A DNA stretch of 64,000 bases from Candidatus Nealsonbacteria bacterium DGGOD1a (lineage in GTDB: Bacteria; Patescibacteriota; Minisyncoccia; Minisyncoccales; UBA5738): the NCBI GenBank assembly GCA_022530585.1, contig CP092821.1:819465-883464 (forward strand), given 5' to 3'. Of this stretch, positions 2,397-52,214 are shown piece by piece; the first letter of the stretch is position 1, and each line of letters begins with the position of its first letter. The notes beneath the pieces are model-generated. The model made no database searches and was not told where the DNA came from. It saw only the letters and a list, made by a program, of their open reading frames with translations. The position numbers were made by a program, and so were the translations under genes.

Positions 2397-2464
2397 AAAT
2401 TTTTTCGCTTTTAGATTGCCATAATCATATCATTTCCTCCGATATTTGCCACTCTCGCAAATAA

Positions 2465-3175: not shown

Positions 3176-3199
3176 CGTTTTTCCGTTTAAACGCGAAAA

Positions 3200-5571: not shown

Positions 5572-5667
5572 CCGTTATTTCAATAGTTTTGCGGCAATTT
5601 CGCGGAAAGTTGATATCGCTCAAAAGCGCGCCGTCCCTACAGTTCTGCTTGAAAAAACCAACTCGCA

Positions 5668-9172: not shown

Positions 9173-9264
9173 AATATACTACCCATTCAACCTACCTCTT
9201 TTATCCCCTTTTTTCAATCAACAACCCCGGCAACAATAAATTTTATATTTTCCATTCGAGTCCG

Positions 9265-9365
9265 CGATCGGGGTATTAACCCCGATCTTGCGGCCAAAGG
9301 GGGCACCCCTTTGGAATCCTCTTGGTGCACCCCGGGGCAAAGCCCCGAGGTATTGCACTCAATAA
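9265..9365. repeat. Structured repeat element, copy 1. The 73-bp core is 100 percent identical to 52244..52316.
   Basis: Hairpin gatcgggg-tattaa-ccccgatc, then hairpin ccaaagggg-gcac-ccctttgg, then the palindromic ccccgggg/ggggcaaagcccc segment. It is followed by the palindrome aatatttcatttgaaatatt. Confidence 0.6.
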
Positions 9366-9539
9366 AAAAATATTTCATTTGAAATATTCATGTTGGGGCG
9401 AGAAAATTTTGCGCCAAAGCCAATTTCCTTCGGTTTCTTTTTACGCAACGGCAACTGCTTGGCGTTTATTGATTGAATTTATCCCACGAAACAACCGCGC
9501 CGTACAGCGCGACATATACGCCGTTGTTTAGCGTTTCAA

Positions 9540-9636
9540 CCGCCCATTGAATTGCGGGCCTTCCCGTGATTTTTTTGGCGGAAAGCGGGTCCAAGACTGA
9601 AAACCTAAGATTTTTTTGGCGGATACCTTTTTGGCG
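9540..9636 (+). repeat. ~97-bp island-associated repeat, copy 1 (cgcccattgaattgcgggccttcccgtgatttttttggcggaaagcggg...gatttttttggcggatacctttttggcg)
   Basis: Near-identical to copy 2 (12934..13030, same orientation) and copy 3 (20029..20133, inverted). It contains an internal direct subrepeat gatttttttggcgga. Confidence 0.6.
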
Positions 9637-10057
9637 GCGGATTTCATCCGTGTCCATTAAACAGGCACAGATCAAAAGACGGTTTGAGCGCGTTCAACTT
9701 TTCGATTGAATTCATCCGGAGCGAGCAATCATCGACTTCGATCCCGACCGAATAGTTCCCCTTTTGGGCAAACACATTCCCTCGGGAATACTCGGGATTC
9801 CTTTCGGTCACATTCCGGCCCTTTCGGTTTCGCCAGACCTCTTTTTCCGTTCGGGCTTCGTACCCTAAACGCGAAAAATATCTCATTATGAGCCATTGAA
9901 TCTACGGATGGTGCGGGGTATGAATTTTTAGTAAATCCTCTACTAAGTAGTTCACTTTAATAGAAAATTAATCCAAAGACTTATAGAATTAGGGTACTTG
10001 ACAGCTTGTGGATAACTTCTTGTATTGCGCCATGAAAAATGGTACTATGTAAATAGC

Positions 10058-10591
10058 TCATCTACCATGCGTAGAAGGAGTATCGGATACCGCCCCCAAA
10101 GGCGGTGTTTGTTTATTGTACTTTTCAAACTCTTTTTTATATCTTTTTTTGTTATATTTATCGATAGGAAAAGCGGTACAAAAAAGGTAATAGTCTTTTC
10201 TTTTAGTAATTATAACTATATAGTCCCATTTACCGAAACAGAAACAAATTCTTTTTTGAATTTTACCTTTTTTGTTTTTTCTTTCCGTTTCCCACAATTT
10301 GATATCACCGCAAGGATAATTCTCAATAATAGCTTTCGGCCACTTCAATCTTTCACATCTTCTTAAATCTGGGGTTCTTTCCTCTTCTACCTCTCCCCCT
10401 GAAATCATGTGCCAAAATGTATATTCTTTTCCCTTTAAATAAGGGTCTCTAATACATTTCACCTGTAATTTATCAAATAAGATTTTGTCTTCAAAAAAAT
10501 CTTTTTTGAAACATAAATATAGGGCTTCTAAATACTTTTCCCAATCTCCACCAAAATCATCAAAACACAACAAGTCGGGTAATTTAGTCAT
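10058..10591 (-). CDS. Hypothetical protein, island cargo
   Basis: 177-aa ORF in an AT-rich segment. I recognise no family. Confidence 0.45.
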   Translation of the reverse strand: MTKLPDLLCFDDFGGDWEKYLEALYLCFKKDFFEDKILFDKLQVKCIRDPYLKGKEYTFWHMISGGEVEEERTPDLRRCERLKWPKAIIENYPCGDIKLWETERKNKKGKIQKRICFCFGKWDYIVIITKRKDYYLFCTAFPIDKYNKKRYKKEFEKYNKQTPPLGAVSDTPSTHGR

Positions 10592-10594
10592 AGA

Positions 10595-11246
10595 TCACTC
10601 TTGCGCTTTCCAAACGAAGACATTAAATTTATCCTCTCGATACAAAGTAGATTTTTGTAGCGAATACCCAGACCTTTCTATGATTCTTTTGATAATATCA
10701 ATTTTCGCCTTGCTTGTTTCCAATCCTCGATTTTGATAGCATACAGCTCCTAACAGAAAATCCGTAACTTGCATTAGTTCAATTTCATCAGATCTAACAA
10801 TCTGCATGTTTTCGATGATCTTTCTATCAAAATCATACATGTTATTAGATAAAACTTCCTGTAATTTTTTCACTTTCTGCCCTCCTCTTGTATCTTTGAT
10901 ATCAATGTATATGCGGTATTTATCTTCGGGATTAAAGATGGTTTTGAGCAGAGCAAAATACATTTTATAATACCACTCATCGTGAGTCTGCTTAAACTGA
11001 GAATGGTTCAAAAGGTGCTTGTCGGGAATCACAAGACACCGAAAATGTAAATCATCATTATCAAAAAAATAATCTACAATTTTTTTATAAAAAGCAACCT
11101 TCGCTGGAGAAACCTTTGTCCATTTTATCTCAAAATTAGATCCTATATTGTTTTCTTTTTTTATCTCTCTAATACGTTTAAAAATTTCGTGCGTTTTTTC
11201 TAATGGACACCATAAAGCACCAAAAGCCTGAAGTGGTCGGGGTTGT
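10595..11246 (-). pseudogene. DUF3800-like gene, C-terminal fragment, interrupted by an IS3 insertion
   Basis: The minus-strand frame is open from the IS boundary (QPRPLQAFGALWCPLEK...) with no ATG. The track ORF 10595..11032 starts at a GTG and is only the downstream part. Confidence 0.6.
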
Positions 11247-12067
11247 CAAGACACGGAATTTTGAGGAACCAGATGGTAAGAATTTGTTAAATTTGTTTGC
11301 TTAATCTTCTGAAAATGCACTTCTGCTGGTCTTCGGTAACCTAATGACTGATGGCGGCGCAGATTATTGTAAAGCGGAAAGTATTCATTTAAACCTCTGC
11401 GGGCTTGTCCCACATCTTGGTAGGAGTTTAAGTAAATGTTTTCCCGTTTGACCGTTCGCCATAATCTCTCGGTGAAAATGTTGTCCATATAGCGGCCGCG
11501 CCCGTCCATGGATATTTCGACTTGTTTTGATTCCAGAATTCCCGTAAATTGAGGACTGGTAAAATGGCTGCCTTGATCGCTGTTGAAAATTGCCGGCCGG
11601 CTTTGCGCCAAAGCTTCGTTTAAACATTCCAAGCAAAATCCGATTTCCAAGTTGTTGGATAATTTCCAAGCGATCACATAGCGGGAAAACCAATCAATAA
11701 TCGCGGCCAAATAAGCAAATCCCGTTTCCAGCCGCACATAAGTAATATCGCAACCCCAAACTTGATTCGGCCCGGTAATTTTCAGACCTCTTAACAGGTA
11801 AGGATAAATTTTGTGTTCGTTGTTTTTTAAGCTTAAATCAAGCTTGTTTTTGGGATAAATCGCCTCAATTCCCATGGTTTGCATCAATGCGCGAGTGTGG
11901 CCGCGGCCAATGGGAATTCGGTAGGTTTGATTCAATTCTTCTTTGATCTTCCGACTGCCATAGAACGGGAATCGGGTGTAAATAATATCAATCAAATCCA
12001 TGATTCTTTTGTCTTCTTCGCTCGGCGGCATCGGGCGGTAATACCAGCTGGCGCGGGATATTCCCAA
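11246..12067 (-). CDS. IS3-family transposase OrfB (DDE integrase, rve domain)
   Basis: Motifs WGCDITYV, NSDQGSHFTS and TERLWRTVKRE. Confidence 0.85.
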   Translation of the reverse strand: MGISRASWYYRPMPPSEEDKRIMDLIDIIYTRFPFYGSRKIKEELNQTYRIPIGRGHTRALMQTMGIEAIYPKNKLDLSLKNNEHKIYPYLLRGLKITGPNQVWGCDITYVRLETGFAYLAAIIDWFSRYVIAWKLSNNLEIGFCLECLNEALAQSRPAIFNSDQGSHFTSPQFTGILESKQVEISMDGRGRYMDNIFTERLWRTVKRENIYLNSYQDVGQARRGLNEYFPLYNNLRRHQSLGYRRPAEVHFQKIKQTNLTNSYHLVPQNSVS

Positions 12068-12484
12068 TAATTGGCATTGTCTTTTTAAAGAAATATTTTT
12101 GTTGTCTTCTTCAATCAGCGATATTTTCCGCTCATGGGTTAGGGATTTGCAGTTTTTTTTTAAGCCATTCCAGTTCCATATCTCTTTGGCCGATAATCTT
12201 GTAAAGATTGTCTAATTCCGCCTGACGGCGGATTTGCTCGTCTTTCTCCTTTTTGCGACCGTCCTTGAACAATTCGGCCAGATTATCCAACGCCTGCTTT
12301 TTCCAAAGCCCGATCTGTGTCGGATGAACTTGAAAATCCGAGCTGATTTGGGCCATTGTTTTTTCCTCCCTGATTGCGGTTAACGCCACTTGCGCTTTTT
12401 CTTGGGGAGTAAAACTCCGCGTTTTTTTGTTCATATCTCATCATATCTTTTCCACACCAGTTGGCGCAAATTTCGTGTCTAGAT
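11247..12484 (-). mobile_element. IS3-family insertion sequence (orfA plus orfB, probable -1 frameshift)
   Basis: Imperfect terminal inverted repeats caagacacggaattt / atctagacacgaaattt and a 4-bp target duplication TTGT/ACAA. A slippery TTTAAAA motif lies between orfA and orfB at about 12082-12090. Confidence 0.75.
12132..12434 (-). CDS. IS3-family transposase OrfA (HTH)
   Basis: An HTH region (FTPQEKAQVALTAI) and a leucine-zipper-like C-terminus typical of IS3 OrfA. Confidence 0.8.
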   Translation of the reverse strand: MNKKTRSFTPQEKAQVALTAIREEKTMAQISSDFQVHPTQIGLWKKQALDNLAELFKDGRKKEKDEQIRRQAELDNLYKIIGQRDMELEWLKKKLQIPNP

Positions 12485-12571
12485 TTGTAAGACCATTATA
12501 GCCATAGCCTGTTGATGGTCATGTTCCAAATGGCAGCTTTCGTCACAATAAATATTATAGATTTGGCTCAT
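12485..12571 (-). pseudogene. DUF3800-like gene, N-terminal fragment (MSQIYNIYCDESCHLEHDHQQAMAIMVLQ)
   Basis: An ATG at about 12569-12571 with the YCDES motif of DUF3800. Removing the IS and one TSD copy joins it in frame to 10595..11246. Confidence 0.55.
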
Positions 12572-12748
12572 AAATTATTAAACCGTAACCCTTAAAAACT
12601 TTATTTTAATCTACAGTTTTCGAAGTATTTAATCAAGATTTAAAAATTCGACGAAGCCTCACGGCTTCGTGAGATTTATTTATATATTTTACCCCCCCTC
12701 CCCCACCTGCGGCTAAAATGCGTTGGCCTGAGCCCAATTCGAGCCCGG

Positions 12749-12818
12749 CTGCCCCCTTGCGAGCGCCGCCCTGGAGGAGAGCCCTCCGGAAGGGCAAGCG
12801 AAGCTCAGTCGGGGGCAG
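12749..12818 (+). ncRNA. Candidate small SRP RNA (4.5S-like) hairpin
   Basis: A GC-rich ~70-nt hairpin. Its ends ctgccccc/gggggcag pair, and it contains uccGGAAggg (GGAA tetraloop) and an AAGC motif reminiscent of SRP RNA domain IV. I could not validate the rest of the consensus. Confidence 0.25.
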
Positions 12819-12933
12819 ATAGATGGTATAAATCAGCTGTTCTTGATAAAATAGGTACAAACTTCGTTGAAAATGTACTCCATAATATAACAAAGTTCCT
12901 TTTTTCCCTCTAAATTGCGGCCGGCGGCGATCG

Positions 12934-13030
12934 CCGCCCATTGAATTGCGGGCCTTCCCGTGATTTTTTTGGCGGAAAGCGGGTTCGATACGGAATACCT
13001 AAGATTTTTTTGGCGGATACCTTTTTGGCG
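12934..13030 (+). repeat. ~97-bp island-associated repeat, copy 2
   Basis: See copy 1. It overlaps the annotated 3' end of vsr. Confidence 0.6.
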
Positions 13031-13433
13031 AGTCTTTCAAAAAACTAATAATTCTATTAACCGATCCATTAAAATCACTTTTAATTTGATGTTCCCAAAT
13101 CGTTAGCACTTGCCAACCAATTTTCCTTAACTTTCCCGCAACGAACCTATCCCTCAATTTATTTTTTCTTAATTTATTTTTCCAAAACTCATTTGGAAGC
13201 ACCGATTCCCACCGTGAAAGTTGCCAACCGTGCCAAAAATCACTATGCAAAAAAACCGCCTTTTGAAATTTTAGTAAAGCAATATCTGGCTTACCAATTA
13301 CTTTTTTGTAGTTTTTTTTAAATTTAATGCCTTTCCTTGATACTTCTCGAAAGATTTTCTGCTCAAAATCAGTATTCGACGAATGAATCCTCGACATTAT
13401 TGAACTTCGTTTTTCCTTACTAAATTTATCCAT
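12999..13433 (-). CDS. vsr: Very-short-patch-repair endonuclease (Vsr)
   Basis: GKPDIALLKFQKAVFLHSDFWHGW matches the Vsr catalytic core. It is adjacent to a C5-cytosine methyltransferase. The last ~14 codons run into repeat copy 2, so the true stop may lie earlier. Confidence 0.8.
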   Translation of the reverse strand: MDKFSKEKRSSIMSRIHSSNTDFEQKIFREVSRKGIKFKKNYKKVIGKPDIALLKFQKAVFLHSDFWHGWQLSRWESVLPNEFWKNKLRKNKLRDRFVAGKLRKIGWQVLTIWEHQIKSDFNGSVNRIISFLKDSPKRYPPKKS

Positions 13434-13436
13434 TTT

Positions 13437-13979
13437 TTAAAAAATACTTTTTGACTCCGCAGCTAATTCTTGAGTTAAACTTAGATTCCATGCTCGCATA
13501 GTTTTATGCCATCTTCTGAATTTTAAGAATTGCTCCCAAGTAAGCTCTAAAATTTTCTTTGGCTTATAGTGTTTATCGATTAAAACGATAATCACATACT
13601 CAAACTTTTTTTCCGGATTTTTATCGGTTTGATCACCGCAACCGTAAAAAACGCCCGTAAGATTCCCTGGTTCTGAAATTGTTTTAATACTATAACGCTC
13701 GCCTCTCCTGCTAATGGCATCTACATTTTGCGTTCCCTCCGGGGCCGCTTGAAGCTTAGCTAAGCCTGGCGTTTTATTGTATATTTTAATTGCCAAAAAT
13801 TCGCCGCGTTCGCCAACTATATTTCTAGTCCTCACTAATCCTCGTTCTTTCAATTTAAGACCGATGTATGCGTAGAGTGTCCAAATTTCCTCATCCGATA
13901 ACTCATTCGCCGCATTCAACACATCGTCAAATTTTAGCAACAAATCTCCTTTTTTTATGTTCTTTTCCATATACTCCAT
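13437..13979 (-). CDS. Putative Type II restriction endonuclease (PD-(D/E)xK-like)
   Basis: 180 aa. It is divergent from the m5C methyltransferase and co-directional with vsr. GERGEF...VDAIS...SIKT is a plausible PD-(D/E)xK arrangement. No family could be assigned. Confidence 0.45.
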   Translation of the reverse strand: MEYMEKNIKKGDLLLKFDDVLNAANELSDEEIWTLYAYIGLKLKERGLVRTRNIVGERGEFLAIKIYNKTPGLAKLQAAPEGTQNVDAISRRGERYSIKTISEPGNLTGVFYGCGDQTDKNPEKKFEYVIIVLIDKHYKPKKILELTWEQFLKFRRWHKTMRAWNLSLTQELAAESKSIF

Positions 13980-14020
13980 TTTACTTTGATGATATAATTT
14001 GTTAAAGAGGGAACAGAAAC
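13980..14020. promoter_or_regulatory. Divergent promoter region between the REase and MTase genes
   Basis: A 41-bp AT-rich intergenic spacer between divergently oriented R and M genes. Confidence 0.3.
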
Positions 14021-15049
14021 ATGACTATCTCGCGTAAAAAAAAGATAAAAGTAATCGACCTTTTTGCCGGTATCGGCGGTATTGGCCTCGCCTTTAAACG
14101 CGCGGGTTTTGATATTGTTTATTCAAATGATTTTGACAGGTTTGCTTGTAAAACATATGAAGCTAATGTCGGAAAGATTGATTATCGCGATATCAAAAAA
14201 GTCAAACCAGAAGAACTACCGATCTATAATGTTTTATTGGCTGGATTTCCGTGCCAACCGTTTTCCGCTCTGGGCCATCGTTTAGGATTTGAAGATCCGA
14301 GAGGTAATTTATTTTTTGAAATAGAAAGGTTACTGCACACAAACAAACCAGATGCTTTTTTTCTCGAGAATGTTCGTCATCTTAAAACTCATAACGACGG
14401 GAATACTTTCCGTGAGATCTCCAAAGCTTTGGAGGGTCGTTTAGGTTATAAATTATTCGTAAATATTTTAAACGGAAAAGATTTCGGCTTACCGCAGAGC
14501 AGAGAGCGGTTTTATTTGGTAGGCTTCAGGGAAAATGTATCATTCACGTTTCCGAAGGTAACAAATAAGGAATTACCGCGCTTGGATTCGATCCTTGAGG
14601 AAAACGTCGACCCCAAATATTACCTTTCCGAAAAATATTTAACTGGGCTAGAAAAACACAAAGAGAGACATCGAGGCAAAGGCCACGGATTCGGATATGA
14701 AATACTAGATCCGCAAGGTATCGCTCACACTCTTGTCGCTGGTAACATGGGCAGGGAAAGAAACTTGATCAAAGATAAACTGGTGGAATCGTATGATCAT
14801 GAAATTTTGACTCCAAGAAATAAAAAGGGTGTTCGCAAATTAACGGTTAGAGAATACGCTCGCCTTCAAGGATTTCCAGATTCTTTCGTTTTCCCGGTTT
14901 CAGACAACCAAGCATATAAACAAATAGGTAACTCTGTCTGTGTACCAGTAGTGCATGCAATCGCAAAAAAAATGAAAAAGGTTCTTGAAAGCACCTATTC
15001 TTTTCAACAAAATCAAGATTTAATGCCAGGAGAACATACAGCGAACTAA
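14021..15049 (+). CDS. dcm: DNA (cytosine-5)-methyltransferase
   Basis: Motif I DLFAGIGG, motif IV GFPCQPFS, motif VI ENV and QSRERFY. Confidence 0.9.
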   Translation: MTISRKKKIKVIDLFAGIGGIGLAFKRAGFDIVYSNDFDRFACKTYEANVGKIDYRDIKKVKPEELPIYNVLLAGFPCQPFSALGHRLGFEDPRGNLFFEIERLLHTNKPDAFFLENVRHLKTHNDGNTFREISKALEGRLGYKLFVNILNGKDFGLPQSRERFYLVGFRENVSFTFPKVTNKELPRLDSILEENVDPKYYLSEKYLTGLEKHKERHRGKGHGFGYEILDPQGIAHTLVAGNMGRERNLIKDKLVESYDHEILTPRNKKGVRKLTVREYARLQGFPDSFVFPVSDNQAYKQIGNSVCVPVVHAIAKKMKKVLESTYSFQQNQDLMPGEHTAN

Positions 15050-15054
15050 AAAAT

Positions 15055-15900
15055 TTAGTGAAATTTCGGCTCCTTGCGAAAACACTTATAACAAAGTGTT
15101 TTTAAGTTATTAATTTCGTTATTTTTCGGATCATTATCGATATGCCGAACGAACAGATCTTTACCATGATCTTTTTGGCTTGATCCCCTGTCTAACCCGC
15201 ATCTCGTACATTTAAAGCCATCCCTTTCTATGGCTTTTTCTCTATTCCCACCGAAATGCTTAAGATTCCAAGCCTCTTTCATTTTTTTCTTAACTTCTGG
15301 TCGTTGAGCGTATTTTTTTGAATATTCTTTATTTTTTTGTTTTATTTTCTCCGCATTTCTTTCATTGGAAGCTTTAACTAAATCTTTGAAATAATCGCTT
15401 TTGAAATAACAGTTACGACAAAGACCATAGCTGTGATGAGGTGTTGTGGTGGTTCCGCAATTTCGACATTTTAAATAAAATCTGCTCCACCGTTGTTTAT
15501 ACTTATCGGAATTTTTACCCAAGATATCAATTATCTCTGGAAAATTTTTTTTAATAATTTTTAAAGAAATTTTCTCATCCGATAAAAATTTGTTCAAAGA
15601 ATATTGAGTGGATGCTTTTTGCATTAATTCATTTCTTCGATTTTCATAAGATCCGTATTTCTTTTCGTCTCGTTTTGTCTCATGCGATTTTTTAATATCA
15701 TCAACAAACGAAGAAACATCAATTACCTGCCCCGCGTTTACGGATTGATGAATTTCATACATAATCGCCTTACTTAGTAATTGGCGAATACGCTCTCTGG
15801 TTATCCCGTGCTTTTGGCCTATTTCCTCAAGCGTGCATCCTTGCTTATAAAGCTCAAGAATATCCAAGAGTCGTGTTATGTTTTTTTCCGCTTCCTCCAT
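15055..15900 (-). CDS. HTH (sigma-70 region-4-like) - CxxC zinc ribbon - HNH nuclease
   Basis: N-terminal LEEIGQKHGITRERIRQLLSKA. Middle CRNCG...CRNC. C-terminal HNH (CTRCG...VRHID...NLKTLCYKC). Confidence 0.7.
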   Translation of the reverse strand: MEEAEKNITRLLDILELYKQGCTLEEIGQKHGITRERIRQLLSKAIMYEIHQSVNAGQVIDVSSFVDDIKKSHETKRDEKKYGSYENRRNELMQKASTQYSLNKFLSDEKISLKIIKKNFPEIIDILGKNSDKYKQRWSRFYLKCRNCGTTTTPHHSYGLCRNCYFKSDYFKDLVKASNERNAEKIKQKNKEYSKKYAQRPEVKKKMKEAWNLKHFGGNREKAIERDGFKCTRCGLDRGSSQKDHGKDLFVRHIDNDPKNNEINNLKTLCYKCFRKEPKFH

Positions 15901-15905
15901 ATTGG

Positions 15906-17735
15906 TTAATGTGATTCATCGGGATTATACGCATCGTCAAACAGAAAATTTCCTAAGTCTTTGGCTGCCGCTTCATGCACCTTTGAAATCATAGTTCCAA
16001 GAATTTCTGCATCTATCGTGTCGGCGTTGAATCGATCTGGATCTTTTTTTGCCAACCGTTGGAGCGCCTCCTTAATAAAAATATCTATATACCTCTGGAA
16101 AAGAAAGTCTCTCCATCTTAAGTGTTCGGCTCCGTATTTTTCTATGATCGCTGCAGCAAGCGGGCTCGAAGTATTAATCCAATAGATTCCCGCATCAACA
16201 TCTTGTATCCTTTGATATACGACAGGCTGACGCGGATCGAGTTGCACCTTTTTCCCTCCATTGAGAGGATCATCGTCAAAACTCGACAGCTTAACCATAG
16301 GAAATTTACCCGTTTTCTTTGGTTTGTCTCCGCCTCCCTGCTGATCGCCAGATCCACCGCCCTTGGTTCCGCCTGAATCACCAGTTCCCGTTCCTCGTCC
16401 GCCCCCGGACCCACCAGAACCAAATCCTCCGCCGGAACCCACCCCTGGCCCGACCAGCACTTCCGCAAACAATTGGCGCATGAATTTATTTTTCCATTCG
16501 TTCAAAAAATCATTATAAGTGGAAGACAATTTTTTGTTAATTTCTTCTTGCTCTTTATCTTCTTGATCAGCGATTCTTGCGGCCAATTCATCCACCTGAG
16601 ACCTTATCCATTGAAGCAATGCGTTACTCCTATCGTTCGGAATAAGCTTTTCCCTGTCATTGCTAACGGAAGAATTCGCTGGTTCTTCAAGAATCGGACA
16701 TTCACATTCCCCATAGAGAAAAACCGCCTGCGTATAATAGCGAATACCCATTTCGTATATCCTGTAAGAACCGATAACCCCAAGTTCGCCAATGATATCG
16801 ACTCTATTAAGATCGGAAAACCGACCGCCCCGCTCTAAGGCAACCTCCGAAGTGCGAAGAATTAACCGGCCACCAGGATATTTCAAATTTTCCATTTCTA
16901 TAACCAGTTTTTCCGCATCTTTTTCCAAAATCAATTTGTCGGGTATCGGAATAACAATAGGTTCTTCGAATCCTGGACGAGGTTTAATTTCGTCTGGCAA
17001 CAATCTTTCGTATAATATTACATCGTTTTGACTTACGGAAAGCGGAATCCGCATCAGCACTCTTCGAGCCTGCGGATGGTTTTTCAATTTTTCACAAATT
17101 CGTAACGCTTTAATTTTTGTTTTCATTCCAACCGGACTAACCCCTCTCGCTACCGTAAACCCCGTCTCACCATTTAAAATTGATTCTTTCAATTCTGACG
17201 GAACAATTTTTTCTATATTGGCAAACTTTATGGCTTCGTTTACGTTAAATGGTATGTCCTTAAAAGGCTTGTTTTTTTGATAATTTGCAAAACCATATTT
17301 TTTATTTTCACTAAAACCAAAAACATTAAGTTTTCCGTCTCGGAAAGTAATAAAATACGATTCGTCAAACATTTGCCTCATATAAAACTTACCGCCGTTT
17401 CCGTGGCCTCCATAAGTTTTTTTCTTCATACCTCGTTTTGCCGCCTCTGGATCGCCCCACCATTGAAAAGCTTCCTGAATATCCAACGACGTCATACCCA
17501 CAAAATCGATATTTTCAACTGTCGCTTGTCCATCTTCTTCGTCGGTAAATCTTAAGACAACATATTGCTTGTTATCTGGCATTCCTTTTCTGATATACGC
17601 ATCCGCCGAATTTTTTACTAATTCTGAAATACCTTTTTCGTGATCGAATTTGAATTCTCTTCCCCAAATTTCCAAAAGATTGTCATGAAATTTATTCTGC
17701 TCTTCCTGAATGACAAACGTTTTCGTTTTAGCCAT
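15906..17735 (-). CDS. GHKL-family (Bergerat fold, MORC/paraMORC-like) ATPase with a Gly-rich linker and a C-terminal uncharacterised domain
   Basis: N-box ELVKNSADAY, G1-like IDFVGM and G2 YGGHGNGGKF. A low-complexity GS-rich stretch (GPGVGSGGGFGSGGSGGGRGTGTGDSGGTKGGGSGDQQGGG) lies at about aa 430-475. It is co-operonic with the HNH gene. Confidence 0.7.
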   Translation of the reverse strand: MAKTKTFVIQEEQNKFHDNLLEIWGREFKFDHEKGISELVKNSADAYIRKGMPDNKQYVVLRFTDEEDGQATVENIDFVGMTSLDIQEAFQWWGDPEAAKRGMKKKTYGGHGNGGKFYMRQMFDESYFITFRDGKLNVFGFSENKKYGFANYQKNKPFKDIPFNVNEAIKFANIEKIVPSELKESILNGETGFTVARGVSPVGMKTKIKALRICEKLKNHPQARRVLMRIPLSVSQNDVILYERLLPDEIKPRPGFEEPIVIPIPDKLILEKDAEKLVIEMENLKYPGGRLILRTSEVALERGGRFSDLNRVDIIGELGVIGSYRIYEMGIRYYTQAVFLYGECECPILEEPANSSVSNDREKLIPNDRSNALLQWIRSQVDELAARIADQEDKEQEEINKKLSSTYNDFLNEWKNKFMRQLFAEVLVGPGVGSGGGFGSGGSGGGRGTGTGDSGGTKGGGSGDQQGGGDKPKKTGKFPMVKLSSFDDDPLNGGKKVQLDPRQPVVYQRIQDVDAGIYWINTSSPLAAAIIEKYGAEHLRWRDFLFQRYIDIFIKEALQRLAKKDPDRFNADTIDAEILGTMISKVHEAAAKDLGNFLFDDAYNPDESH

Positions 17736-17736
17736 A

Positions 17737-18369
17737 TTATTTTATTGCCTTGTAGGTAATTAATTCTTCGAACTTATTAAACAAAAAACTATGATACTGA
17801 ATAATTTTGTCGTAAAGGGGTTTTTTTTCGTCCGATTTCAACGATTTCAACTCCTCAACAACGCTTTTCATTGTCTCAACTCTTCCCATAAAATCATTTT
17901 TACTTGTTCTGACAGTGACCCCCAAATAATTATAAAAATCAGTATCCAATATTTTTTCCCGTTCATCGTTTATAAAAAGACCCTGAAACCCGTCCAGGAT
18001 TAAAATTCTTGCGACTTCTTTTTCCGCATGTCTCGACAAACGATTATCGCTTCTTATATGTTTACCGGCAACCGCATCTTTAATCTGGGTAGCAATGGAG
18101 ACACCACGATCTGTCAAGGTAAATATTTTGTTTCCAGCCGTAACCAATCCTTTCTTCTTCGCATCGTAAAGTGGTTTATGCACCATATCGCCAGAATCAG
18201 GATATTCCTTATATCCCCTCAAATGAAATTCCTCGGGATAATCCTTAAACAGCTTAACCACAATATCTTCAAACCGAATGTTGCGCCGGGTACCCCCAGA
18301 AAGGTTTAACAACGCAAGTAATACTTTTTGAAAACGCGAAAGACTTTGTGATTTTTCCATAATATTCAA
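17737..18369 (-). CDS. Hypothetical protein with a probable N-terminal winged-helix domain. Third gene of the GHKL operon.
   Basis: 210 aa. FQKVLLALLNLSGGT...IRFEDIVVKLF looks wHTH-like. It lies 1 nt from the GHKL gene. Confidence 0.45.
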   Translation of the reverse strand: MNIMEKSQSLSRFQKVLLALLNLSGGTRRNIRFEDIVVKLFKDYPEEFHLRGYKEYPDSGDMVHKPLYDAKKKGLVTAGNKIFTLTDRGVSIATQIKDAVAGKHIRSDNRLSRHAEKEVARILILDGFQGLFINDEREKILDTDFYNYLGVTVRTSKNDFMGRVETMKSVVEELKSLKSDEKKPLYDKIIQYHSFLFNKFEELITYKAIK

Positions 18370-18374
18370 AATAT

Positions 18375-18611
18375 TTACAATTTAAATTCTCCTGTTTTTT
18401 TGGAAAAAATAAATTTAGATTTCGTTTCTTTGATTTTTTTTTCGATTTCAGAAAATATTTTATCTATATCTTCTTCATTATATTCATAAACATGTCTATT
18501 CGCGCAATTTCCCAGAACTTTTAGACGCTTTAAAACCATGTTTGTGCGTAAAGTTGCCAAACGACAAAACCTTTCGCGTGAACTTTCATTTTTTGGTGAC
18601 TGCTTGCTCAT
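18375..18611 (-). CDS. Small hypothetical protein, first gene of the GHKL operon
   Basis: 78 aa, basic, 5 nt upstream of the next gene. No recognisable family. Confidence 0.4.
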   Translation of the reverse strand: MSKQSPKNESSRERFCRLATLRTNMVLKRLKVLGNCANRHVYEYNEEDIDKIFSEIEKKIKETKSKFIFSKKTGEFKL

Positions 18612-18703
18612 ATGCTTTGTTTTTGTTATAGATATATTACCCTTGCAAATAAGATGAACCCTTGGTAAGAGCTTAGCGTATTGTAGATATAAGTCAAGCT
18701 AAC

Positions 18704-20278
18704 ATGTTAAATTATTTTCTATACGCCAGAAAATCTACGGATGTTGAGGATAAACAAGTCCTATCTATTGAGGCGCAGCTTTCCGAATTGCGCGATTTTG
18801 CTACGCGCGAGAATTTGACCATCATCGAGACTTTCATTGAAAAACAATCGGCCAAGATTCCGGGAAGGCCGATCTTCAACAAGATGGTCGAACAGATAGA
18901 GAAAGGCCGGGCGCAAGGCATCATTGCTTGGCACCCCGACCGGTTGGCCCGCAACAGCGTTGACGGCGGCAAGATCATCTATCTTGTCGATACCGGCACA
19001 ATCGCCGCCTTGCGCTTCCCCACCTTTTGGTTTGAACCCACGCCGCAGGGAAAATTCATGTTGAATATTTCTTTTGGCCAAAGCAAATATTATATCGATT
19101 CGCTTTCGGAAAATACCAAAAGAGGGCTTCGCCAAAAGTTAAGGCGCGGCGAATATCCGGGCCGCGTACCGGTTGGTTATATAAACGATTCGCGCGATAA
19201 AAGTATTGCGGTTGATAGAAAGAAAGCGAAAATCATCAAAGAAGCGTTTGAATTGTACGCCAAGAACGAATCAAGGCTCGAAGATATTTCTGCTTTTCTC
19301 GCGCAAAACGGAATCGTAACCAGAGGAACTAAAAGATGCGTCAAACGGAGCCAAGTGTCCCATATTTTATTAAATCCTTTCTACTACGGACATTTCCGGT
19401 TTTTAGGCGAAATCCACGAAGGAAAACACGAGCCAATTATCACAAAGAAACTTTTTGATAAAGTGCAAGAAGTTTTGAGAGATCGCGGCAAACCGCAAAG
19501 GAAAGCGAATGACCCGAAACCGCTTTGCGGTTTGCTTCATTGCGGAAATTGCGGAATGGGAATAACCGCCGAAGTCAGAAAAGGCCATACCTATTACCGC
19601 TGTACCAAAAAATCAAAAACCGTTAAGTGTTTGGAAAAGTATATCCGCGAGGAAGAACTCGACCGGCAGTTGTCCGAAGAATTGCAAAAATTTTCTTTGC
19701 CCGAAGATTGGGCAAATCGATTATCGCAAATGACCGCAAAAGAAGAACAAGGAATCTCTCAATCTTCCGCCGTCCTCACTCAAGCATCGCGCGATGAGCT
19801 ACAAGACATTAAAACCAAGCTCCCGCGCCTTTTGGACAGCTATCTCGATCAAGACGTCGACCGCGAGGACTATCGCCAAAAGAAGGCCGATCTTATGAGC
19901 CGGAAGAAAACGCTGGAAGAGAAAATCGGCGATCTTGAGCAGGGCCGTAATAGTTGGCTCGGACCGATGCGAGAATGGCTAAATGAAGCGCAAAATATAG
20001 GGAAAATCGCTCAAAATTCGGATCTTTCCGCCAAAAAGGTATCCGCCAAAAAAATCTTCGGCTCGGACCTGCATCTTTCCGCCAAAAAAATCACGGGAAG
20101 GCCCGCAATTCAATGGGCGGCGGTCGCCGCCGCGAAAAATTTTCCTCCTAAAACTGACTTAAGTTACTTAATGGAGCGAGTGAAGGGAATCGGACCCTCG
20201 TCTCGACCTTGGGAAGGTCATGTACTGCCACTGTACGACACTCGCGAGTTCGTCCCGCCGTGGCGGGACAATTTTTAA
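18704..20278 (+). CDS. Large serine recombinase (resolvase catalytic domain, recombinase domain, zinc ribbon, coiled coil)
   Basis: YARKSTDVEDK (Ser nucleophile), the resolvase fold, CGLLHCGNCG...YYRC zinc ribbon, and a coiled coil. The C-terminus runs into repeat copy 3, so the true stop may lie earlier. Confidence 0.85.
   Translation: MLNYFLYARKSTDVEDKQVLSIEAQLSELRDFATRENLTIIETFIEKQSAKIPGRPIFNKMVEQIEKGRAQGIIAWHPDRLARNSVDGGKIIYLVDTGTIAALRFPTFWFEPTPQGKFMLNISFGQSKYYIDSLSENTKRGLRQKLRRGEYPGRVPVGYINDSRDKSIAVDRKKAKIIKEAFELYAKNESRLEDISAFLAQNGIVTRGTKRCVKRSQVSHILLNPFYYGHFRFLGEIHEGKHEPIITKKLFDKVQEVLRDRGKPQRKANDPKPLCGLLHCGNCGMGITAEVRKGHTYYRCTKKSKTVKCLEKYIREEELDRQLSEELQKFSLPEDWANRLSQMTAKEEQGISQSSAVLTQASRDELQDIKTKLPRLLDSYLDQDVDREDYRQKKADLMSRKKTLEEKIGDLEQGRNSWLGPMREWLNEAQNIGKIAQNSDLSAKKVSAKKIFGSDLHLSAKKITGRPAIQWAAVAAAKNFPPKTDLSYLMERVKGIGPSSRPWEGHVLPLYDTREFVPPWRDNF
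20029..20133 (-). repeat. ~97-bp island-associated repeat, copy 3 (inverted relative to copies 1 and 2)
   Basis: The reverse complement matches copies 1 and 2, including the shared upstream gcggcggcgaccgccgcccattg. Confidence 0.6.
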
Positions 20279-20330
20279 TTTTCATTAAAACTTCAATTTT
20301 CAAAAAATTTTCAATGTTTCAAATGCCGAT

Positions 20331-20720
20331 TCAGTCTTCTTTTTGTGATGTATTTACTATTTTCTGGAATATCATCGTCAATTCTTGCGCTTCCTGCCAC
20401 AATTTTCGTATTTCTTCCTTGTTTTCCGGAAAACAAACCGCGATCATCCTTAACCAATGTTTTGTTTCTTGACATTCTTTCTTGCAAATATAAATTTTGT
20501 TCCTAAAGTCCTTCTTTGAGCTGGCGCCATTTGCTTCCATATAATTCGCACCGACACTCGTGCCCGACCTTACGATTTGGCTGATAAGCGGTTTTGAAAT
20601 CGTATCTTGTTTTACCGCTCTGCAAAAGATTATAACACTCTCGCCAAATTTAGCGGTGCGTTCTTCCAGATCGTAGCTTTTGCCACCATTTGAAACATTG
20701 CAATTTGAAACATTCATTGA
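20331..20720 (-). CDS. Four-helix-bundle protein (23S rRNA intervening-sequence protein family, TIGR02436-like)
   Basis: LISQIVRSGTSVGANYMEANGASSKKDFRNKIYICKKECQETKHWL matches the family signature. The start is probably at MNVSN (20720). Confidence 0.6.
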   Translation of the reverse strand, partial: SMNVSNCNVSNGGKSYDLEERTAKFGESVIIFCRAVKQDTISKPLISQIVRSGTSVGANYMEANGASSKKDFRNKIYICKKECQETKHWLRMIAVCFPENKEEIRKLWQEAQELTMIFQKIVNTSQKED

Positions 20721-20749
20721 AAATTGGAATTTGAAAATTAAAAATTGTA

Positions 20750-21340
20750 AATGACCCTGCGGCAAGACCGCAGGGCGTTCGCAGCTACAATTCAAACAAT
20801 CGTAACTGGCTCACGTCTTTTGGTCTGCCTTGGTTTTGAATGTATCGCTCAATAACTTTCCTATTACCGCGTGCGCTGATCGTAGCGATATAATAGCCGT
20901 CTGTCCAGAAATCTCCACCCCAGAGTTCTTTTTTAATTTCGGGAACTTGCCGGAACACCTCGCGCGCGGTAATGCTTTTTATTATTTTGATAACCTGGCC
21001 GCCGGAATACTTCGGCAGGAATCTTGCCAGAATATGGGCGTGGTCTTGGTCGAATCCCACATGGCTGATCTCAATGGCGTACCGTTCCATAAATCCTTTC
21101 AGGCTCTCGACAATTGCGGCAATCACCTTTTCGTTCAGTAATGCTTTGCGATATTTGACCGTAATCTGGATGTGGTAATAACATTCGGAAACATTGTGGT
21201 ACCAACGCCAGATATCCCGCTTTTCTTGCTCCATATTGGCTTATTGTAACACGGACGCGCTTTCGCGCGTGATGGTAGGGGGATATCCCCCTACCAAACC
21301 ACCCCCTTAAGTTGTTCCCTGCGGCAAGACCGACAGGGTG
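20750..21340 (-). mobile_element. IS200/IS605-family element (tnpA only)
   Basis: Subterminal hairpins ccctgcggcaagaccgcaggg (about 20755-20775) and ccctgcggcaagaccgacaggg (about 21317-21338), plus the internal hairpins cgcgctttcgcgcg and gtagggggatatccccctac. Confidence 0.75.
20785..21234 (-). CDS. tnpA: IS200-like Y1 (HUH) transposase TnpA
   Basis: The HUH motif HAHIL and a catalytic Y region (DGYYIATIS). 149 aa. Confidence 0.85.
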   Translation of the reverse strand: MEQEKRDIWRWYHNVSECYYHIQITVKYRKALLNEKVIAAIVESLKGFMERYAIEISHVGFDQDHAHILARFLPKYSGGQVIKIIKSITAREVFRQVPEIKKELWGGDFWTDGYYIATISARGNRKVIERYIQNQGRPKDVSQLRLFEL

Positions 21341-25887: not shown

Positions 25888-25934
25888 ATACTCTTTAAAA
25901 AGGGTCTAACCCTCGCGATCACACGAAAGATAGA

Positions 25935-26325
25935 CCCTAAAAACGGAAAACCCAAGCCGGCAATAAGCCGAATTCTGTGTCGCCCCGCCGGATTTGGCGG
26001 GACCAAGCAATCATTTATCTGGACCGCAAATTGCTTCGCGGCCTCAAGCGGTTTACTTTTCACCCCGCTTTGGGCGGGGTGTTTAACCTTGCACCCGAGC
26101 AAGGATTTAGCCGTTTCACCCCTATGTCGCCATAGGATTAATCCCCGGCCTTTCGGCTTGGGATTCTTCCGCCTTTCGGCTCGAGCGTCACTGTTCGCAC
26201 CTCTACCTCGCGGTCGAAGGGAATTACCCTCTGCTTTTTTCCCTCGCCTTGCGGTTCGGGAAGAGTGTTCGGACTTTCCTCTCTCGAAGATTTTAATCTT
26301 CGGGAGCGATTGCGTACCAGCTTGG
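25935..26325 (-). ncRNA. rnpB: RNase P RNA, bacterial type A
   Basis: Minus strand: P4 5' strand GAGGAAAGUCCGAAC and P4 3' strand ACAGAAUUCGGCUUA, with GG-to-AA / CC-to-UU covariation. Also the conserved GGGGUGAAA and GGUUAAACACCCCGCC blocks, a P3 hairpin (cgaagattaaaatcttcg), and P1 pairing aaaacccaagcugg / ccggcuuggguuuu. Confidence 0.85.
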
Positions 26326-32757: not shown

Positions 32758-33050
32758 AACGAATGCGGGATTGCTCCTTTGTCTTATTGTTATATAATAC
32801 CTTTTTTGGCAAAATTTGACCAACGGCATCAATGCCATAATTTTCAATTAACAATTAACAATTTTCCTTTGAATTACGAAACAATTAAATTCAAATGCTT
32901 TGGAGGGGTCTAACCCTTGCGATTACACAAGGGATAGACCCCAAATGCAAAGCGTTTCATAATCGAAGATAATTGGTAATTTTGAGACTTAAAAGCAAAA
33001 TTCTCCCGCTTAACGCGGGAGAACCGCAAACTTGATTATCGCCGCGCGGT

Positions 33051-52128: not shown

Positions 52129-52214
52129 AGCTCCCAAACTAACCATTTTTGAGCTTTTTTCTTTACGAAAGTTGAAAGTGTGCAATCAAAAATATATTTT
52201 CCAAATGTATTTCG

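Follow-up and report, generated by a model that had tools for sequence, protein, structure and literature searches.

A large serine recombinase element probably integrated at a tRNA 3′ end in Patescibacteria, with repeats that correspond to the recombinase coding tail

Large serine integrases catalyse integration by recombining attP with attB, and their excision requires a directionality factor. Each usually has one specific target, typically a protein-coding gene, whereas it is tyrosine integrases that usually occupy tRNA genes. The locus described here, together with its relatives (the window family), resembles several of these systems in part. With the phage-type large serine integrases (phiC31, Bxb1, Listeria A118/LI, SPbeta) it shares the Resolvase-Recombinase-zinc ribbon architecture and a short crossover identity, and it is alike in its apparently hybrid attL/attR host target and perhaps in a motif that lies 4-5 bp further from the centre on the element arm than on the host arm (PMC3783163). 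The window family differs from them in that it targets the 3′ ends of many tRNA genes and not one protein-coding site, has a C-terminal tail of ~60 extra aa whose coding DNA would act as the P′ arm, and carries a second, inverted attP-like site.

The tRNA islands and prophages that use tyrosine integrases (P4-like elements, tycheposons) are similar in that they insert at tRNA 3′ ends and keep the tRNA intact, with the integrase gene beside the tRNA junction and defence cargo that varies at one hotspot. Unlike them, the window family uses a serine enzyme, leaves no tRNA 3′ direct repeat (only 2-6 nt are shared) and occupies tRNAs with at least 23 anticodons, as opposed to one tRNA per integrase. 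SSV1-type archaeal integrases and the mycobacteriophage systems of integration-dependent immunity, which are tyrosine recombinases, also have an attachment site in or at the end of an ORF, so that the C-terminus is altered, although in the window family only the residues after the conserved tail change. In Tn4451 (TnpX), Tn5397 (TndX) and IS607 a serine recombinase is likewise the sole mobility gene of a small element (the minimal units here are 1.6-1.9 kb), but those elements have no long perfect inverted repeats and no tRNA-end targeting, and inserted DNA here extends past the repeats. The FLP/FRT system of the yeast 2-micron plasmid is comparable in that two homogenised inverted repeats with recombination sites separate the recombinase region from a second unique region; FLP, however, is a tyrosine recombinase that flips the segment, whereas no flipping is detectable in 45 integrated loci here. 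We know of no characterised serine integrase with a built-in inverted second attP-like module.

The window is the whole 64-kb stretch of DNA that was analysed, and all the evidence on the element comes from sequence assemblies. We consider it probable that the island in the window is an integrative element of a large serine recombinase (LSR) inserted at a tRNA 3′ end, and that its ~97-bp repeat corresponds to the ~50-codon 3′ coding tail of the LSR gene plus the element-side arm of the attachment site, a judgement that applies to the explanation as a whole. The features concerned are:

9540..9636, + strand: copy 1, a left-type (non-coding variant) recombinase-tail repeat; outer hairpin, spacer and core missing
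12640..12842: X, a non-coding, GC-rich stretch beyond the inverted repeat; its hairpin at 12651-12670 resembles a bidirectional terminator
12843..12877, + strand: Y, a P-arm-like flank (TTGATAAAATAGGTACAAAC-N15), with a degenerate T-loop-like motif from 24 nt before the core
12878..12882, + strand: core CTCCA of the internal attP-like junction J2
12883..13030, + strand: IR-L, composed of spacer type b, a hairpin (12923-12938) and copy 2 (12934-13030); inverted, frame-broken tail duplicate
18704..20278, + strand: large serine recombinase, 524-aa ORF; residues ~442-490 come from copy 3 and the spacer, and the last ~33 codons are antisense tRNA
20029..20171, − strand: IR-R, composed of copy 3 (20029-20133) and spacer type a; coding tail of the recombinase and putative P′ arm of the attL-like junction
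20060..20070, − strand: T-loop-like motif AGGTCCGAGCC, on the strand opposite the G-S-D/N-L codons; consensus in the family AGGTTCGAGCC
20172..20245, − strand: tRNA-Gly(CCC), the putative integration target; the core in common with J2, CTCCA, is its 3′-terminal 5 nt (20172-20176)

The three repeat copies reported in a first-pass annotation of the window were recovered at 9540-9636 (+), 12934-13030 (+) and 20029-20133 (−). In each, a 46-nt left block that is 100% identical across copies (9540-9585, 12934-12979 and 20075-20120) is joined by a centre that varies to a right block of 28-33 nt. Over their 97 nt, copies 1 and 2 share 95% identity; copy 3, which is inverted and 5 nt shorter in its centre, shares 86% with each of them. 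Chance alone would give no match to the 24-nt core of the left block, against three observed, and all six exact occurrences of a 15-nt subrepeat, GATTTTTTTGGCGGA, lie inside the repeat copies. Between copies 2 and 3 the identity runs 12 nt further outward, through the GGCGGCGAYCGCCGCC hairpin, and the true repeat unit extends ~45 nt beyond the 97 bp to the common CTCCA (12878-12882, 20172-20176), additional length that had been missed. At this full extent the IR-L and IR-R of the window are only 78% identical, over 148 and 153 nt respectively, and their spacers differ (type b vs type a). Neither the repeats nor X matched Rfam at gathering and E-value thresholds. The island is AT-rich, as had been stated, with a GC content of 0.33-0.45 (10-19 kb) against 0.45-0.52 in the flanks.

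A serine recombinase at the island end, with an ORF reading through copy 3, had also been correctly recognised, and the domains Resolvase (PF00239, E=2.7e-21), Recombinase (PF07508, E=1.4e-17) and Zn_ribbon_recom (PF13408, E=1.1e-9) were all detected in it. This predicted combination of a resolvase catalytic domain with Recombinase and zinc beta-ribbon domains is that of an LSR, and within the catalytic motif YARKSTD the residues Y7, R9, K10, S11, T12 and D13 are invariant among 19 sequences. The tail, DL[FS]AKKVxAK[EK]IFGSNLxL...QWAAL.AA, is conserved among proteins that are only ~60% identical; the first reading had not seen that copy 3 is protein-coding. The iterated gatttttttggcgga subrepeats, once suggested to be protein-binding sites, turn out to be the reverse strand of S-A-K-K-I/V codons in this tail, which is conserved at the protein level, and AGGTCCGAGCC, which lies between the subrepeats, is the stronger candidate for a site acting at the DNA level. 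Since the recombinase ORF has no stop codon before the predicted crossover, its end is set by the flank, and with the attachment site in or at the end of the ORF, integration would change the encoded C-terminus.

A tRNA-Gly(CCC) gene, overlooked in the first-pass annotation, lies 38 nt past copy 3 and abuts it via the spacer. The arrangement was assessed in 80 metagenome relatives, of which 56 had downstream DNA, 74 were scored for the upstream duplicate and 33 had duplicates that were measured. An antisense tRNA overlaps the end of the recombinase ORF in 45 of the 56 (23 anticodons), and in ~7 of the other 11 the ORF ends in Y sequence instead, which would be an intact attP. A one-genome-per-species scan found the repeat in six Patescibacteria MAGs (8 loci, 1-2 per genome), mostly flanked by the 3′ end of a tRNA gene (Gly, Ala, two Arg) on one side and that of the recombinase on the other, the exceptions being L001 (a left-type copy) and L002 (a non-tRNA flank). 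The outer end of the repeat is always at tRNA position ~72 (N72-N73-CCA), and recombinases that are 85-90% identical in DNA occupy different tRNAs. The recombinase has >7,900 database relatives at E<=1e-20, is <=28% identical to any integrase of the GenBank phages and is rare in viral contigs, where a scan at the DNA level gave no match. Full-text literature searches found no description of this LSR family, and the window appears to hold an integrative element of a very large, apparently undescribed LSR family of Patescibacteria.

At the site formed by LepA, DivIC and tRNA-Gly(CCC), the window and the relatives L091/L092, L094 and L095 carry an insertion, L093 and L096 have the site empty, and the sequences diverge directly past the tRNA end. 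As is typical of a tRNA-associated island, the locus occurs at this tRNA in some related genomes and not in others and has its boundary at the tRNA 3′ end, and the earlier view of it as mobile DNA is borne out by the empty tRNA-Gly in two relatives. The proposed comparison with island-free relatives succeeded to this extent, but both L093 and L096 are non-syntenic downstream and no left boundary could be defined from the relatives; RsgA, which lies between the island and an ABC transporter in L091, is absent from the window. The right boundary, at the tRNA 3′ end, lies 38-43 nt outside the 97-bp repeat and copy 2 is internal, so that the repeats do not bound the island as had been thought, and no relative confirmed copy 1 as a boundary. 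Copy 1 is 99% identical to the IR-L of L094 and 95% to that of L091, and a search for recombinase remnants near it found none; this second, outer-truncated left-type copy at a rearranged left edge is not predicted by the element model, and the window copy of the element is a partly decayed hybrid. The island cargo consists of defence genes, and none of it was found to be common to the window and its relatives. The ORFs outside the recombinase are:

10058..10591, − strand: PDC-M04B candidate defence protein, 177 aa (PADLOC E=7e-56)
10595..11032, − strand: DUF3800 / PDC-M04A gene, C-terminal part, split by an IS3-family insertion (Pfam DUF3800; PADLOC PDC-M04A E=8e-55)
11246..12434, − strand: IS3-family transposase genes inside DUF3800, orfB 11246-12067 and orfA 12132-12434 (Pfam rve, HTH_21, HTH_Tnp_1)
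12479..12571, − strand: DUF3800 N-terminal fragment (MSQIYNIYCDESCHLEHD...)
12999..13433, − strand: Vsr very-short-patch endonuclease, stop codon within copy 2 (Pfam Vsr E=1.5e-19)
13437..13979, − strand: restriction endonuclease (PADLOC mREase_II, E=5e-58)
14021..15049, + strand: C5 cytosine DNA methyltransferase (Pfam DNA_methylase E=2.5e-92)
15055..15900, − strand: 281-aa protein whose HTH resembles Sigma70_r4 and which matches HNH weakly
15906..17735, − strand: 609-aa protein, a possible GHKL ATPase (HATPase_c_3 at E=0.017, which misses the cutoff)
17737..18611, − strand: two ORFs (210 aa, 78 aa) with no assigned function, divergent from the recombinase

Of the label "GHKL-HNH operon", which the first-pass annotation gave to the 609-aa and 281-aa genes, the GHKL part comes solely from the sub-threshold HATPase_c_3 match and the HNH part from a weak one.

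An inverted duplicate of the tail lies upstream of the recombinase in ~58 of the 74 relatives scored. The 33 measured duplicates span 72-162 nt with a median identity of 99.3% (14 are at 100%), while between related elements the same stretch of tail differs by 6-35%. IR-L is a conserved processed form of IR-R, in which a ~50-nt deletion is followed by the recombinase promoter. Outside IR-L, Y (~45 nt) and X (150-250 nt) move with the element to various tRNAs and hosts, and the X of the window is homologous to the segment adjoining IR-L in L005, L006, L009 and L094. In six relatives with triple junctions (L023, L024, L025, L030, L041 and L065), X/Y is duplicated in inverted orientation over 156-253 bp at 95-100% identity, and directly past the distal copy comes a terminator hairpin (L023, L024, L041) or, in an operon, the next same-strand tRNA (L065), from which it follows that the natural tRNA-plus-downstream site is restored. 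The three-way overlaps at these junctions are 2-6 nt long (CA, GCAC, CTCCA and GGCACA); a fixed dinucleotide free of mutation could not lie in both the L023 overlap (positions 72-73) and the L030 overlap (73-77). The relatives have the short shared crossover sequence without long flanking direct repeats that is characteristic of LSRs, with a crossover position that is predicted from the junctions. The distal junction, J1, is present in only ~8 relatives and missing from ~ten others with 2-10 kb of upstream DNA, and no second X/Y copy (attR) was found throughout the 64-kb window. The window likewise has no tRNA 3′ fragment as a direct repeat at a distal end, the only sequence in common being the 5-nt CTCCA, inverted.

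The motif AGGTTCGAGCC is fixed at the DNA level in the tail; the tRNA arm has it too, as does the Y arm, where it is displaced outward by 4 bp. Its G-S-N codons are GGC in 48/53, TCG in 49/49 and AAC in 46/47 cases, compared with a median dominant-codon fraction of 0.44-0.47 at other invariant 4- and 6-fold sites. GGTTCGA starts 20 nt (18-21) before the repeat in tRNA arms vs 24 nt (22-25) in Y arms, a shift compatible, by analogy, with that of the Listeria integrase, whose zinc-ribbon-domain motif lies 5 bp further out in attP than in attB (PMC3783163), with GGTTCGA as the putative bound motif. The P′ arm has no inverted T-loop motif at the expected distance, and the Y motif of the window is degenerate (GGTACAA). 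The motif in Y, the one inside the tail and the T-loop of the tRNA covary in some elements (L065, L054 and the window subfamily) but not in others (L059 and L061).

The sequences show directly how the element is built, that this layout is conserved, that the same tRNA can be filled or empty and that the motif is constrained as DNA; from them we infer the att assignments, the crossover position and T-loop recognition as follows. Insertion would be site-specific at the extreme tRNA 3′ end, with the crossover within tRNA positions 72-74. In the window, junction J3 (tRNA-Gly(CCC)-CTCCA-spacer-copy 3) would be attL, with the tRNA T-arm and acceptor strand as B arm and the recombinase tail as P′ arm, and J2 (X/Y-CTCCA-spacer-copy 2) would be an internal inverted attP-like site made up of P arm Y, core and P′ arm. 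A J2-type site, which the family conserves, would directly precede either the recombinase alone or the recombinase with its cargo, and here would bracket the Vsr/REase/Dcm and 609-aa/HNH cargo. In complete relatives J1, consisting of the inverted X/Y copy, the core and native tRNA-downstream sequence, would be attR, 1.4-7 kb further out; in the window J1 is missing, and the outer module (the PDC-M04 pair, disrupted by IS3) would end at copy 1. Most likely the recombinase reads GGTTCGA, the conserved DNA motif of the T-loop, at a constant spacing from the crossover, and recognition of so conserved a motif would allow any tRNA to serve as target. Insulation or termination, and autoregulation of the recombinase, are the most likely roles of the internal inverted attP-like site. 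An intact chromosomal attP beside an active integrase should be a hazard, which counts against the model. More tentatively, and with slightly less than an even chance, we suggest that a family spanning the Patescibacteria may use the T-loop and acceptor end, present in nearly all tRNA genes, as a generic landing site, reading GGTTCGA at a set spacing from a crossover at the discriminator base, the same motif being hard-wired synonymously in the integrase tail DNA and in the second inverted attP-like site, which might be a regulatory or insulating module or a second recombination module.

The first-pass annotation had taken the three copies to be equivalent att or res-like sites, or terminal repeats of serially integrated elements, so that copies 1-2 and 2-3 would each delimit one element, with deletion between the former and inversion between the latter. 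Copies 1 and 2 are indeed direct repeats around a separate defence module, tandem arrays of elements exist (the J1 of L030 abuts the repeat of another element), and copies 2 and 3 have unlike spacers, as though different elements had supplied them; yet the inverted pair is constant in single elements, down to minimal units of 1.63 kb, copies 1 and 2 are both of the non-coding left type with the same centre insertion, and copy 1 has no associated recombinase. Serine integrase junctions carry identities of 2 bp only and not 100-bp repeats, which is a further point against equivalent sites, and no inversion between copies 2 and 3 was seen, the recombinase pointing at the tRNA in 45/45 integrated relatives. 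Copy 3 is a coding tail at the tRNA junction and copy 2 an internal inverted duplicate, and neither is the end of a serially integrated element. What stands of the earlier proposal is that the repeats are att-related and tied to the serine recombinase; three equivalent sites are unlikely. The invariant orientation, along with the conserved asymmetry of left and right arms, also makes it very unlikely that the module is invertible, as a Hin/Gin switch or a 2-micron FLP/FRT-type flip-flop serving gene switching or copy-number amplification of a circular form. Its layout, with two long, perfectly homogenised inverted repeats that each have a recombination site and one unique region encoding the recombinase, is 2-micron-like, in L042, L057 and L009 repeats of 476-487 bp, or attP, lie on either side, and the high arm-to-arm identity implies frequent exchange. 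Against this, the protein is an LSR of 490-520 aa and not the small enzyme with a C-terminal HTH of Hin/Gin-type switches, and recombination of attP with attP or attL is, according to PMC3783163, not normal for large serine integrases.

A further reading is that of an IS-like transposon, in which the unit from IR-L to IR-R (the recombinase with or without cargo, between ~115-bp terminal inverted repeats) would be mobilised by a serine transposase targeting tRNA ends, with Y as preferred target DNA. Transposons of serine recombinases are established (IS607, Tn4451, Tn5397), the minimal units, of 1.63-1.9 kb, have nothing but the recombinase between two repeats, and contigs often break at the repeats. 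We nonetheless consider it quite unlikely, given that X/Y travels outside IR-L to different tRNAs and hosts and is duplicated at the distal junction next to natural tRNA-downstream DNA, which means that the inserted DNA extends past IR-L. No target-site duplication was seen, and IR-L, as a processed IR-R, is not the symmetric inverted-repeat terminus of an IS or transposon. The last reading, a dispersed genomic repeat (REP-like, or a shared terminator) near the recombinase by chance, relates to the possibility, raised at the outset, that the repeat is widespread and unlinked to mobile DNA. In its favour, the left block can fold into a hairpin with a T-run behind it, and in L094 this sequence is flagged as terminator-like. 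The window, however, has three copies in 64 kb, all in the island, the other six MAGs have 1-2 per genome, each beside a recombinase gene, and not the many independent copies of a REP-like repeat, copy 3 encodes a conserved protein tail, and a terminator scan did not flag the window copies. The distribution of copies effectively refutes this reading.

On the preferred reading of an integrative LSR element, the right island boundary in the window is placed at the tRNA, and copies 2 and 3 are explained. Little is known of the mobile elements of Patescibacteria, and in the reduced genomes of these bacteria the family would be a major route of gene flow, here of defence systems. An integrase recognising the T-loop and the CCA end would, if real, have potential landing sites in almost any genome and be relevant to genome engineering. 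Two oddities are concrete and testable, namely the pair of inverted attachment sites and the DNA motif that is fixed at codon level in the integrase gene.

Several candidate functions for the non-coding segments were also considered. X folds only modestly better than shuffled sequences (z=-3.0), and we therefore make no claim of an ncRNA. Y was rejected as a sigma-70 promoter, with an inconsistent hexamer spacing of 19-21 nt and a promoter scan that flags L005 only, and the left flank was rejected as the DUF3800 start codon (ATGGAG = CTCCAT), the actual start being at 12571. A terminator function of the left block, flagged in L094 yet not in the identical window sequence, is kept as a weak idea. 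In the relatives, small HTH genes are often divergent from the recombinase.

Repeat comparison bore out the three copies of a ~97-bp repeat reported by the first-pass annotation, at 9540-9636(+) (copy 1), 12934-13030(+) (copy 2) and 20029-20133(-) (copy 3), in a region that is, as had also been noted, richer in AT than its flanks. Common to the three are a 46-nt block that is 100% identical (9540-9585, 12934-12979 and 20075-20120) and a second block of 28-33 nt (GATTTTTTTGGCGGATACCTTTTTGGCG), which enclose a variable centre; copy 3, which is inverted, has 5 nt fewer there. For the repeat core zero matches are expected by chance. Outside the repeat, copies 2 and 3 remain alike across a GC hairpin and a ~40-nt spacer that has diverged, as far as a common CTCCA (hereafter the core), which at copy 3 forms the last 5 nt of a tRNA-Gly(CCC) gene. 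Copy 1 is a left-type copy without hairpin, spacer or core; it is 99% identical to the left arm of a relative (L094) and is probably left over from a second or older module, the least certain part of our account. With IR-L and IR-R denoting the left arm with copy 2 and the right arm with copy 3, the arrangement is:

9540-9636 (+): copy 1, followed up to J2 by 420 nt of non-coding DNA, PDC-M04B, its partner DUF3800/PDC-M04A gene split by IS3, and sequence X
12843-13030: junction J2, made up of sequence Y (12843-12877), CTCCA (12878-12882), spacer b and copy 2
J2 to recombinase: cargo, comprising Vsr, mREase_II nuclease (PADLOC), Dcm methylase, an HTH/HNH-like protein, a 609-aa protein and two ORFs
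18704-20278 (+): large serine recombinase
20029-20171: IR-R, copy 3 plus spacer a, the putative P' arm of attL
20172-20245 (-): tRNA-Gly(CCC), 38 nt past copy 3

Occupancy of this tRNA is polymorphic among syntenic relatives, which were retrieved via LepA homologues (83-90% identical). After the run LepA-DivIC-tRNA-Gly(CCC), L091/L092 and L094 have a 91-94% identical recombinase alongside other cargo, L095 has a decayed recombinase copy, and L093 and L096, which lack the island, have unrelated DNA without the repeat (in L096 a terminator comes directly after the tRNA). The loci part straight after ...GCTCCA, which sets the island's right boundary at the tRNA 3' end, 38-43 nt beyond the 97-bp repeat, and not at the repeat itself, as had been supposed. 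At T-loop position 55, all six occupied tRNA-Gly(CCC) genes (window, L091, L094, L095, L003 and L007) have C (GGTCCGA) and both empty ones (L093 and L096) the canonical T (GGTTCGA), the genes lying at 20172-20245 in the window, 12740-12813 in L091, 8548-8621 in L094, 13178-13251 in L093 and 12658-12729 in L096. Nothing but this C/T distinguishes the window tRNA from its L093 counterpart; the C55 variant may be selected by the integrase subfamily, or the change may follow integration.

The serine recombinase is a genuine member of the large class, with Resolvase, Recombinase and Zn_ribbon_recom domains. Its ORF reads into copy 3, as first annotated, and continues across the spacer into the tRNA, to which it is antisense; in its frame copy 3 encodes ...DLSAKKVSAKKIFGSDLHLSAKKITGRPAIQWAAVAAA... 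The iterated subrepeats, earlier put forward as possible protein-binding sites, are present (the 15-nt subrepeat occurs exactly six times in the window, always within the copies), and gatttttttggcgga represents S-A-K-K-I/V codons read on the opposite strand. At E<=1e-20 the recombinase has over 7,900 relatives, of which the best 120 are 58-92% identical, and their C-terminal tail is conserved as protein (DL[FS]AKKVxAK[EK]IFGSNLxL...QWAAL.AA), past which they continue into ERVxGIEP...PWEGxxLPL, the antisense tRNA. Neither in the window (20177-20278) nor in relatives does the ORF contain a stop codon ahead of the crossover, so that its last 1-90 residues would be set by the flank, either tRNA (…ERVxGIEP…) or Y (e.g. 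…YIMELFV in P0002), and integration would change the recombinase's own C-terminal extension.

An exact-pattern scan for paired subrepeats, covering one genome per species, returned eight loci in six Patescibacteria MAGs, at one or two per genome. A tRNA 3' end adjoins six of the eight, five with a called tRNA (tRNA-Gly-CCC, Ala-GGC, Arg-TCT or Arg-GCG) and the sixth (L008) with a 3' stub at the contig end; the remaining two are a left-type copy (L001) and a locus with a non-tRNA flank (L002). L005 and L006 are complete small units, in which ~158-bp inverted repeats (97-98% identical) surround the recombinase and 1-3 kb of cargo, and the right arm's outer end overlaps the tRNA by 3 nt. This anatomy is conserved in a survey sample of 80 metagenome loci of recombinase relatives (47-64% identity): antisense tRNA overlaps the ORF end in 45 of 56 loci with >=120 nt downstream, representing 23 anticodons and 13 amino acids, and an inverted duplicate of the tail is found in ~58 of 74 loci with upstream DNA. 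The 33 inverted repeats measured are 72-162 nt long with a median identity of 99.3% (14 perfect), while the same stretch differs by 6-35% between related elements, which points to concerted evolution of the two arms. IR-L and IR-R usually lie 1.63-1.96 kb apart where the recombinase alone separates them, and up to 7.6 kb apart where there is cargo. Recombinases 85-90% identical in DNA are found at different tRNAs (for example Val-TAC/Leu-TAG and Arg-TCT/Leu-TAA/Val-GAC).

The outer end of both arms always falls at tRNA position ~72 (N72-N73-CCA). Beyond IR-L lie Y, a conserved ~45 nt (TTGATAAAATAGGTTCGAGC-N15), and then the GC-rich and hairpin-rich X, both of which accompany the element to different tRNAs and hosts. 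An inverted duplicate of X/Y (156-253 bp, 95-100%) occurs 1.4-7 kb further out in L023, L024, L025, L030, L041 and L065, with partial distal copies at contig ends in L016 and L079. The distal copy likewise stops at the core, beyond which L023, L024 and L041 have a terminator hairpin and L065 has 17 nt and then tRNA-Pro-Gly-His, which shares its strand with the tRNA-Leu abutting IR-R. Joined to the sequence past the distal X/Y, the tRNA yields a natural tRNA-plus-terminator or tRNA operon, which makes it the simplest reading that J3 (tRNA-core-IR-R) would be attL, J1 (X'Y'-core-Z) attR and XY-core-IR attP; J2 (XY-core-IR-L) would be a complete attP-like site held inside the element, inverted. 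J1 was seen in only ~8 loci, and all data come from assemblies, in which contigs can be broken or misjoined at inverted repeats. Three-way overlaps in relatives (CA, GCAC, CTCCA, CACC and GGCACA) would place the crossover within tRNA positions 72-74, with L023 and L030 not both unmutated. Y replaces the tRNA at the recombinase 3' end in ~7 loci (L036, L048, L057, L058, L062, L081 and L009), i.e., a putative unrecombined attP, and some of these carry 476-487-bp perfect inverted repeats spanning X-Y-core-IR. The perfect inverted repeats of L042 (1-476/2057-2532) and L057 (1-487/3351-3837) are whole attP-like sites, of which L057 has three, and these elements seem to be modules set apart by inverted att-bearing repeats. 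L030 holds a tandem array of elements. In L065 a 9-kb insertion (2416-11481) separates tRNA-Leu from tRNA-Pro; its apparent cargo includes a gene for tRNA-His and one, recognised by eye only, that resembles histidyl-tRNA synthetase.

In most elements IR-L and IR-R are the same as far as a T-loop-like motif, after which IR-L lacks ~50 nt, resumes for ~15 nt (ATCCCTTGCGATTTT) and leads into a sequence resembling TGnTATAAT that precedes the recombinase start; given this conserved gap and resumption, IR-L is a conserved processed version rather than a casual duplicate. The left type in the window's subfamily differs by a 5-9-nt insertion at the motif. The start of GGTTCGA precedes the repeat edge by 20 nt (18-21) where the arm is a tRNA and by 24 nt (22-25) where it is Y. 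Counted from the centre, the motif lies at ~13-21 and 17-25, close to the 11-19 and 16-24 of the Listeria integrase, whose zinc-ribbon-domain motif is 5 bp nearer the centre in attB than in attP (PMC3783163). Nearly every element has a third copy, AGGTTCGAGCC, within the tail-coding DNA, 85-140 nt from the core, which is the reverse strand of G-S-N-L codons in the recombinase tail. In the window (20060-20070(-)) and 54 relatives the G-S-N codons are near-fixed (GGC 48/53, TCG 49/49, AAC 46/47), against a median dominant-codon fraction of 0.44-0.47 at other invariant four-/six-fold sites of the same genes, and the motif is thus constrained as DNA (or RNA) inside a coding region. The window's internal motif is, like its tRNA, the C variant (AGGTCCGAGCC, 20060-20070).

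We propose that the element, as a circle carrying attP at the 3' end of its recombinase gene, would use serine recombination to enter a tRNA gene at the discriminator region, a gene whose T-loop would be the host-arm recognition motif and whose positions ~72-76 the element would supply. The downstream host arm would be essentially unconstrained, since a terminator, another tRNA or another element's arm occurs there. J2 is apparently unused for integration, because a tRNA adjoins IR-L in no locus; candidate roles are to shield the recombinase/cargo module on either side against read-in transcription, to autoregulate via the motif beside the recombinase promoter, or to pair mRNA ends. The alternatives each fail at least one direct test. 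This holds for a transposon bounded by the two arms and for serial integration at equivalent sites, which the first-pass annotation had entertained. It had also thought inversion between copies 2 and 3 conceivable; against such an invertible segment, and against use of J2 for inversion, stands an orientation that is invariant among the loci. A widely dispersed repeat is contradicted by the low count per genome. Compared with tRNA-associated genomic islands, the tRNA-integrating element proposed here behaves alike, but with serine chemistry and without direct repeats. Its enzyme is a large serine recombinase, yet <=28% identical to known phage integrases, and the family is rare in viral contigs. 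No description was found in full-text literature, itself of incomplete coverage, on serine recombinase/integrase, tRNA and Patescibacteria/CPR/Parcubacteria.

The local element departs from the family norm in that its arms are only 78% identical and its spacers differ; its Y is degenerate, and the b-type spacer is found at the tRNA in L091. No inverted X/Y copy was found within the 64-kb window. RsgA, which in L091 lies between the island and an ABC transporter (window 9173-9540 vs L091 20396-21497), was not found anywhere in the window, from which we conclude that the left edge of the island has been rearranged, this too being among the least certain parts. In the operon formerly called GHKL-HNH, one protein is HTH/HNH-like and the GHKL match of the other, the 609-aa protein, is only sub-threshold. 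The DUF3800 gene, correctly described as disrupted by an IS3-family insertion, and a 177-aa gene correspond to PDC-M04A/B, a candidate defence pair in PADLOC (10058-12571(-); E=8e-55 and 7e-56). The folding of X (12640-12842), GC-rich and adjoining Y, is somewhat better than that of shuffled sequence (z=-3.0). X has a bidirectional terminator-like hairpin at its end (12651-12670) and no Rfam match; in relatives it is part of 200-480-bp inverted repeats, with X itself variable in sequence.

Immediately to the left of copy 1 (9245-9366), and once more 43 kb away (52193-52316), there is a hairpin-rich repeat of ~76-125 nt whose copies match at 99% over 76 nt; it could be a REP-like or IS200-associated element. 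Directly host-side of the tRNA are a 23S_rRNA_IVP-family protein and an IS200-like Y1 transposase (20331-21234(-)); L093 and L094 have the IVP gene and lack the transposase. Outside the island, members of one family of ~45-nt palindromic repeats (GGGGTCTAACCC...GGGATAGACCCC) occupy intergenic positions 25902-25941, 32904-32951, 35669-35716 and 44182-44227.
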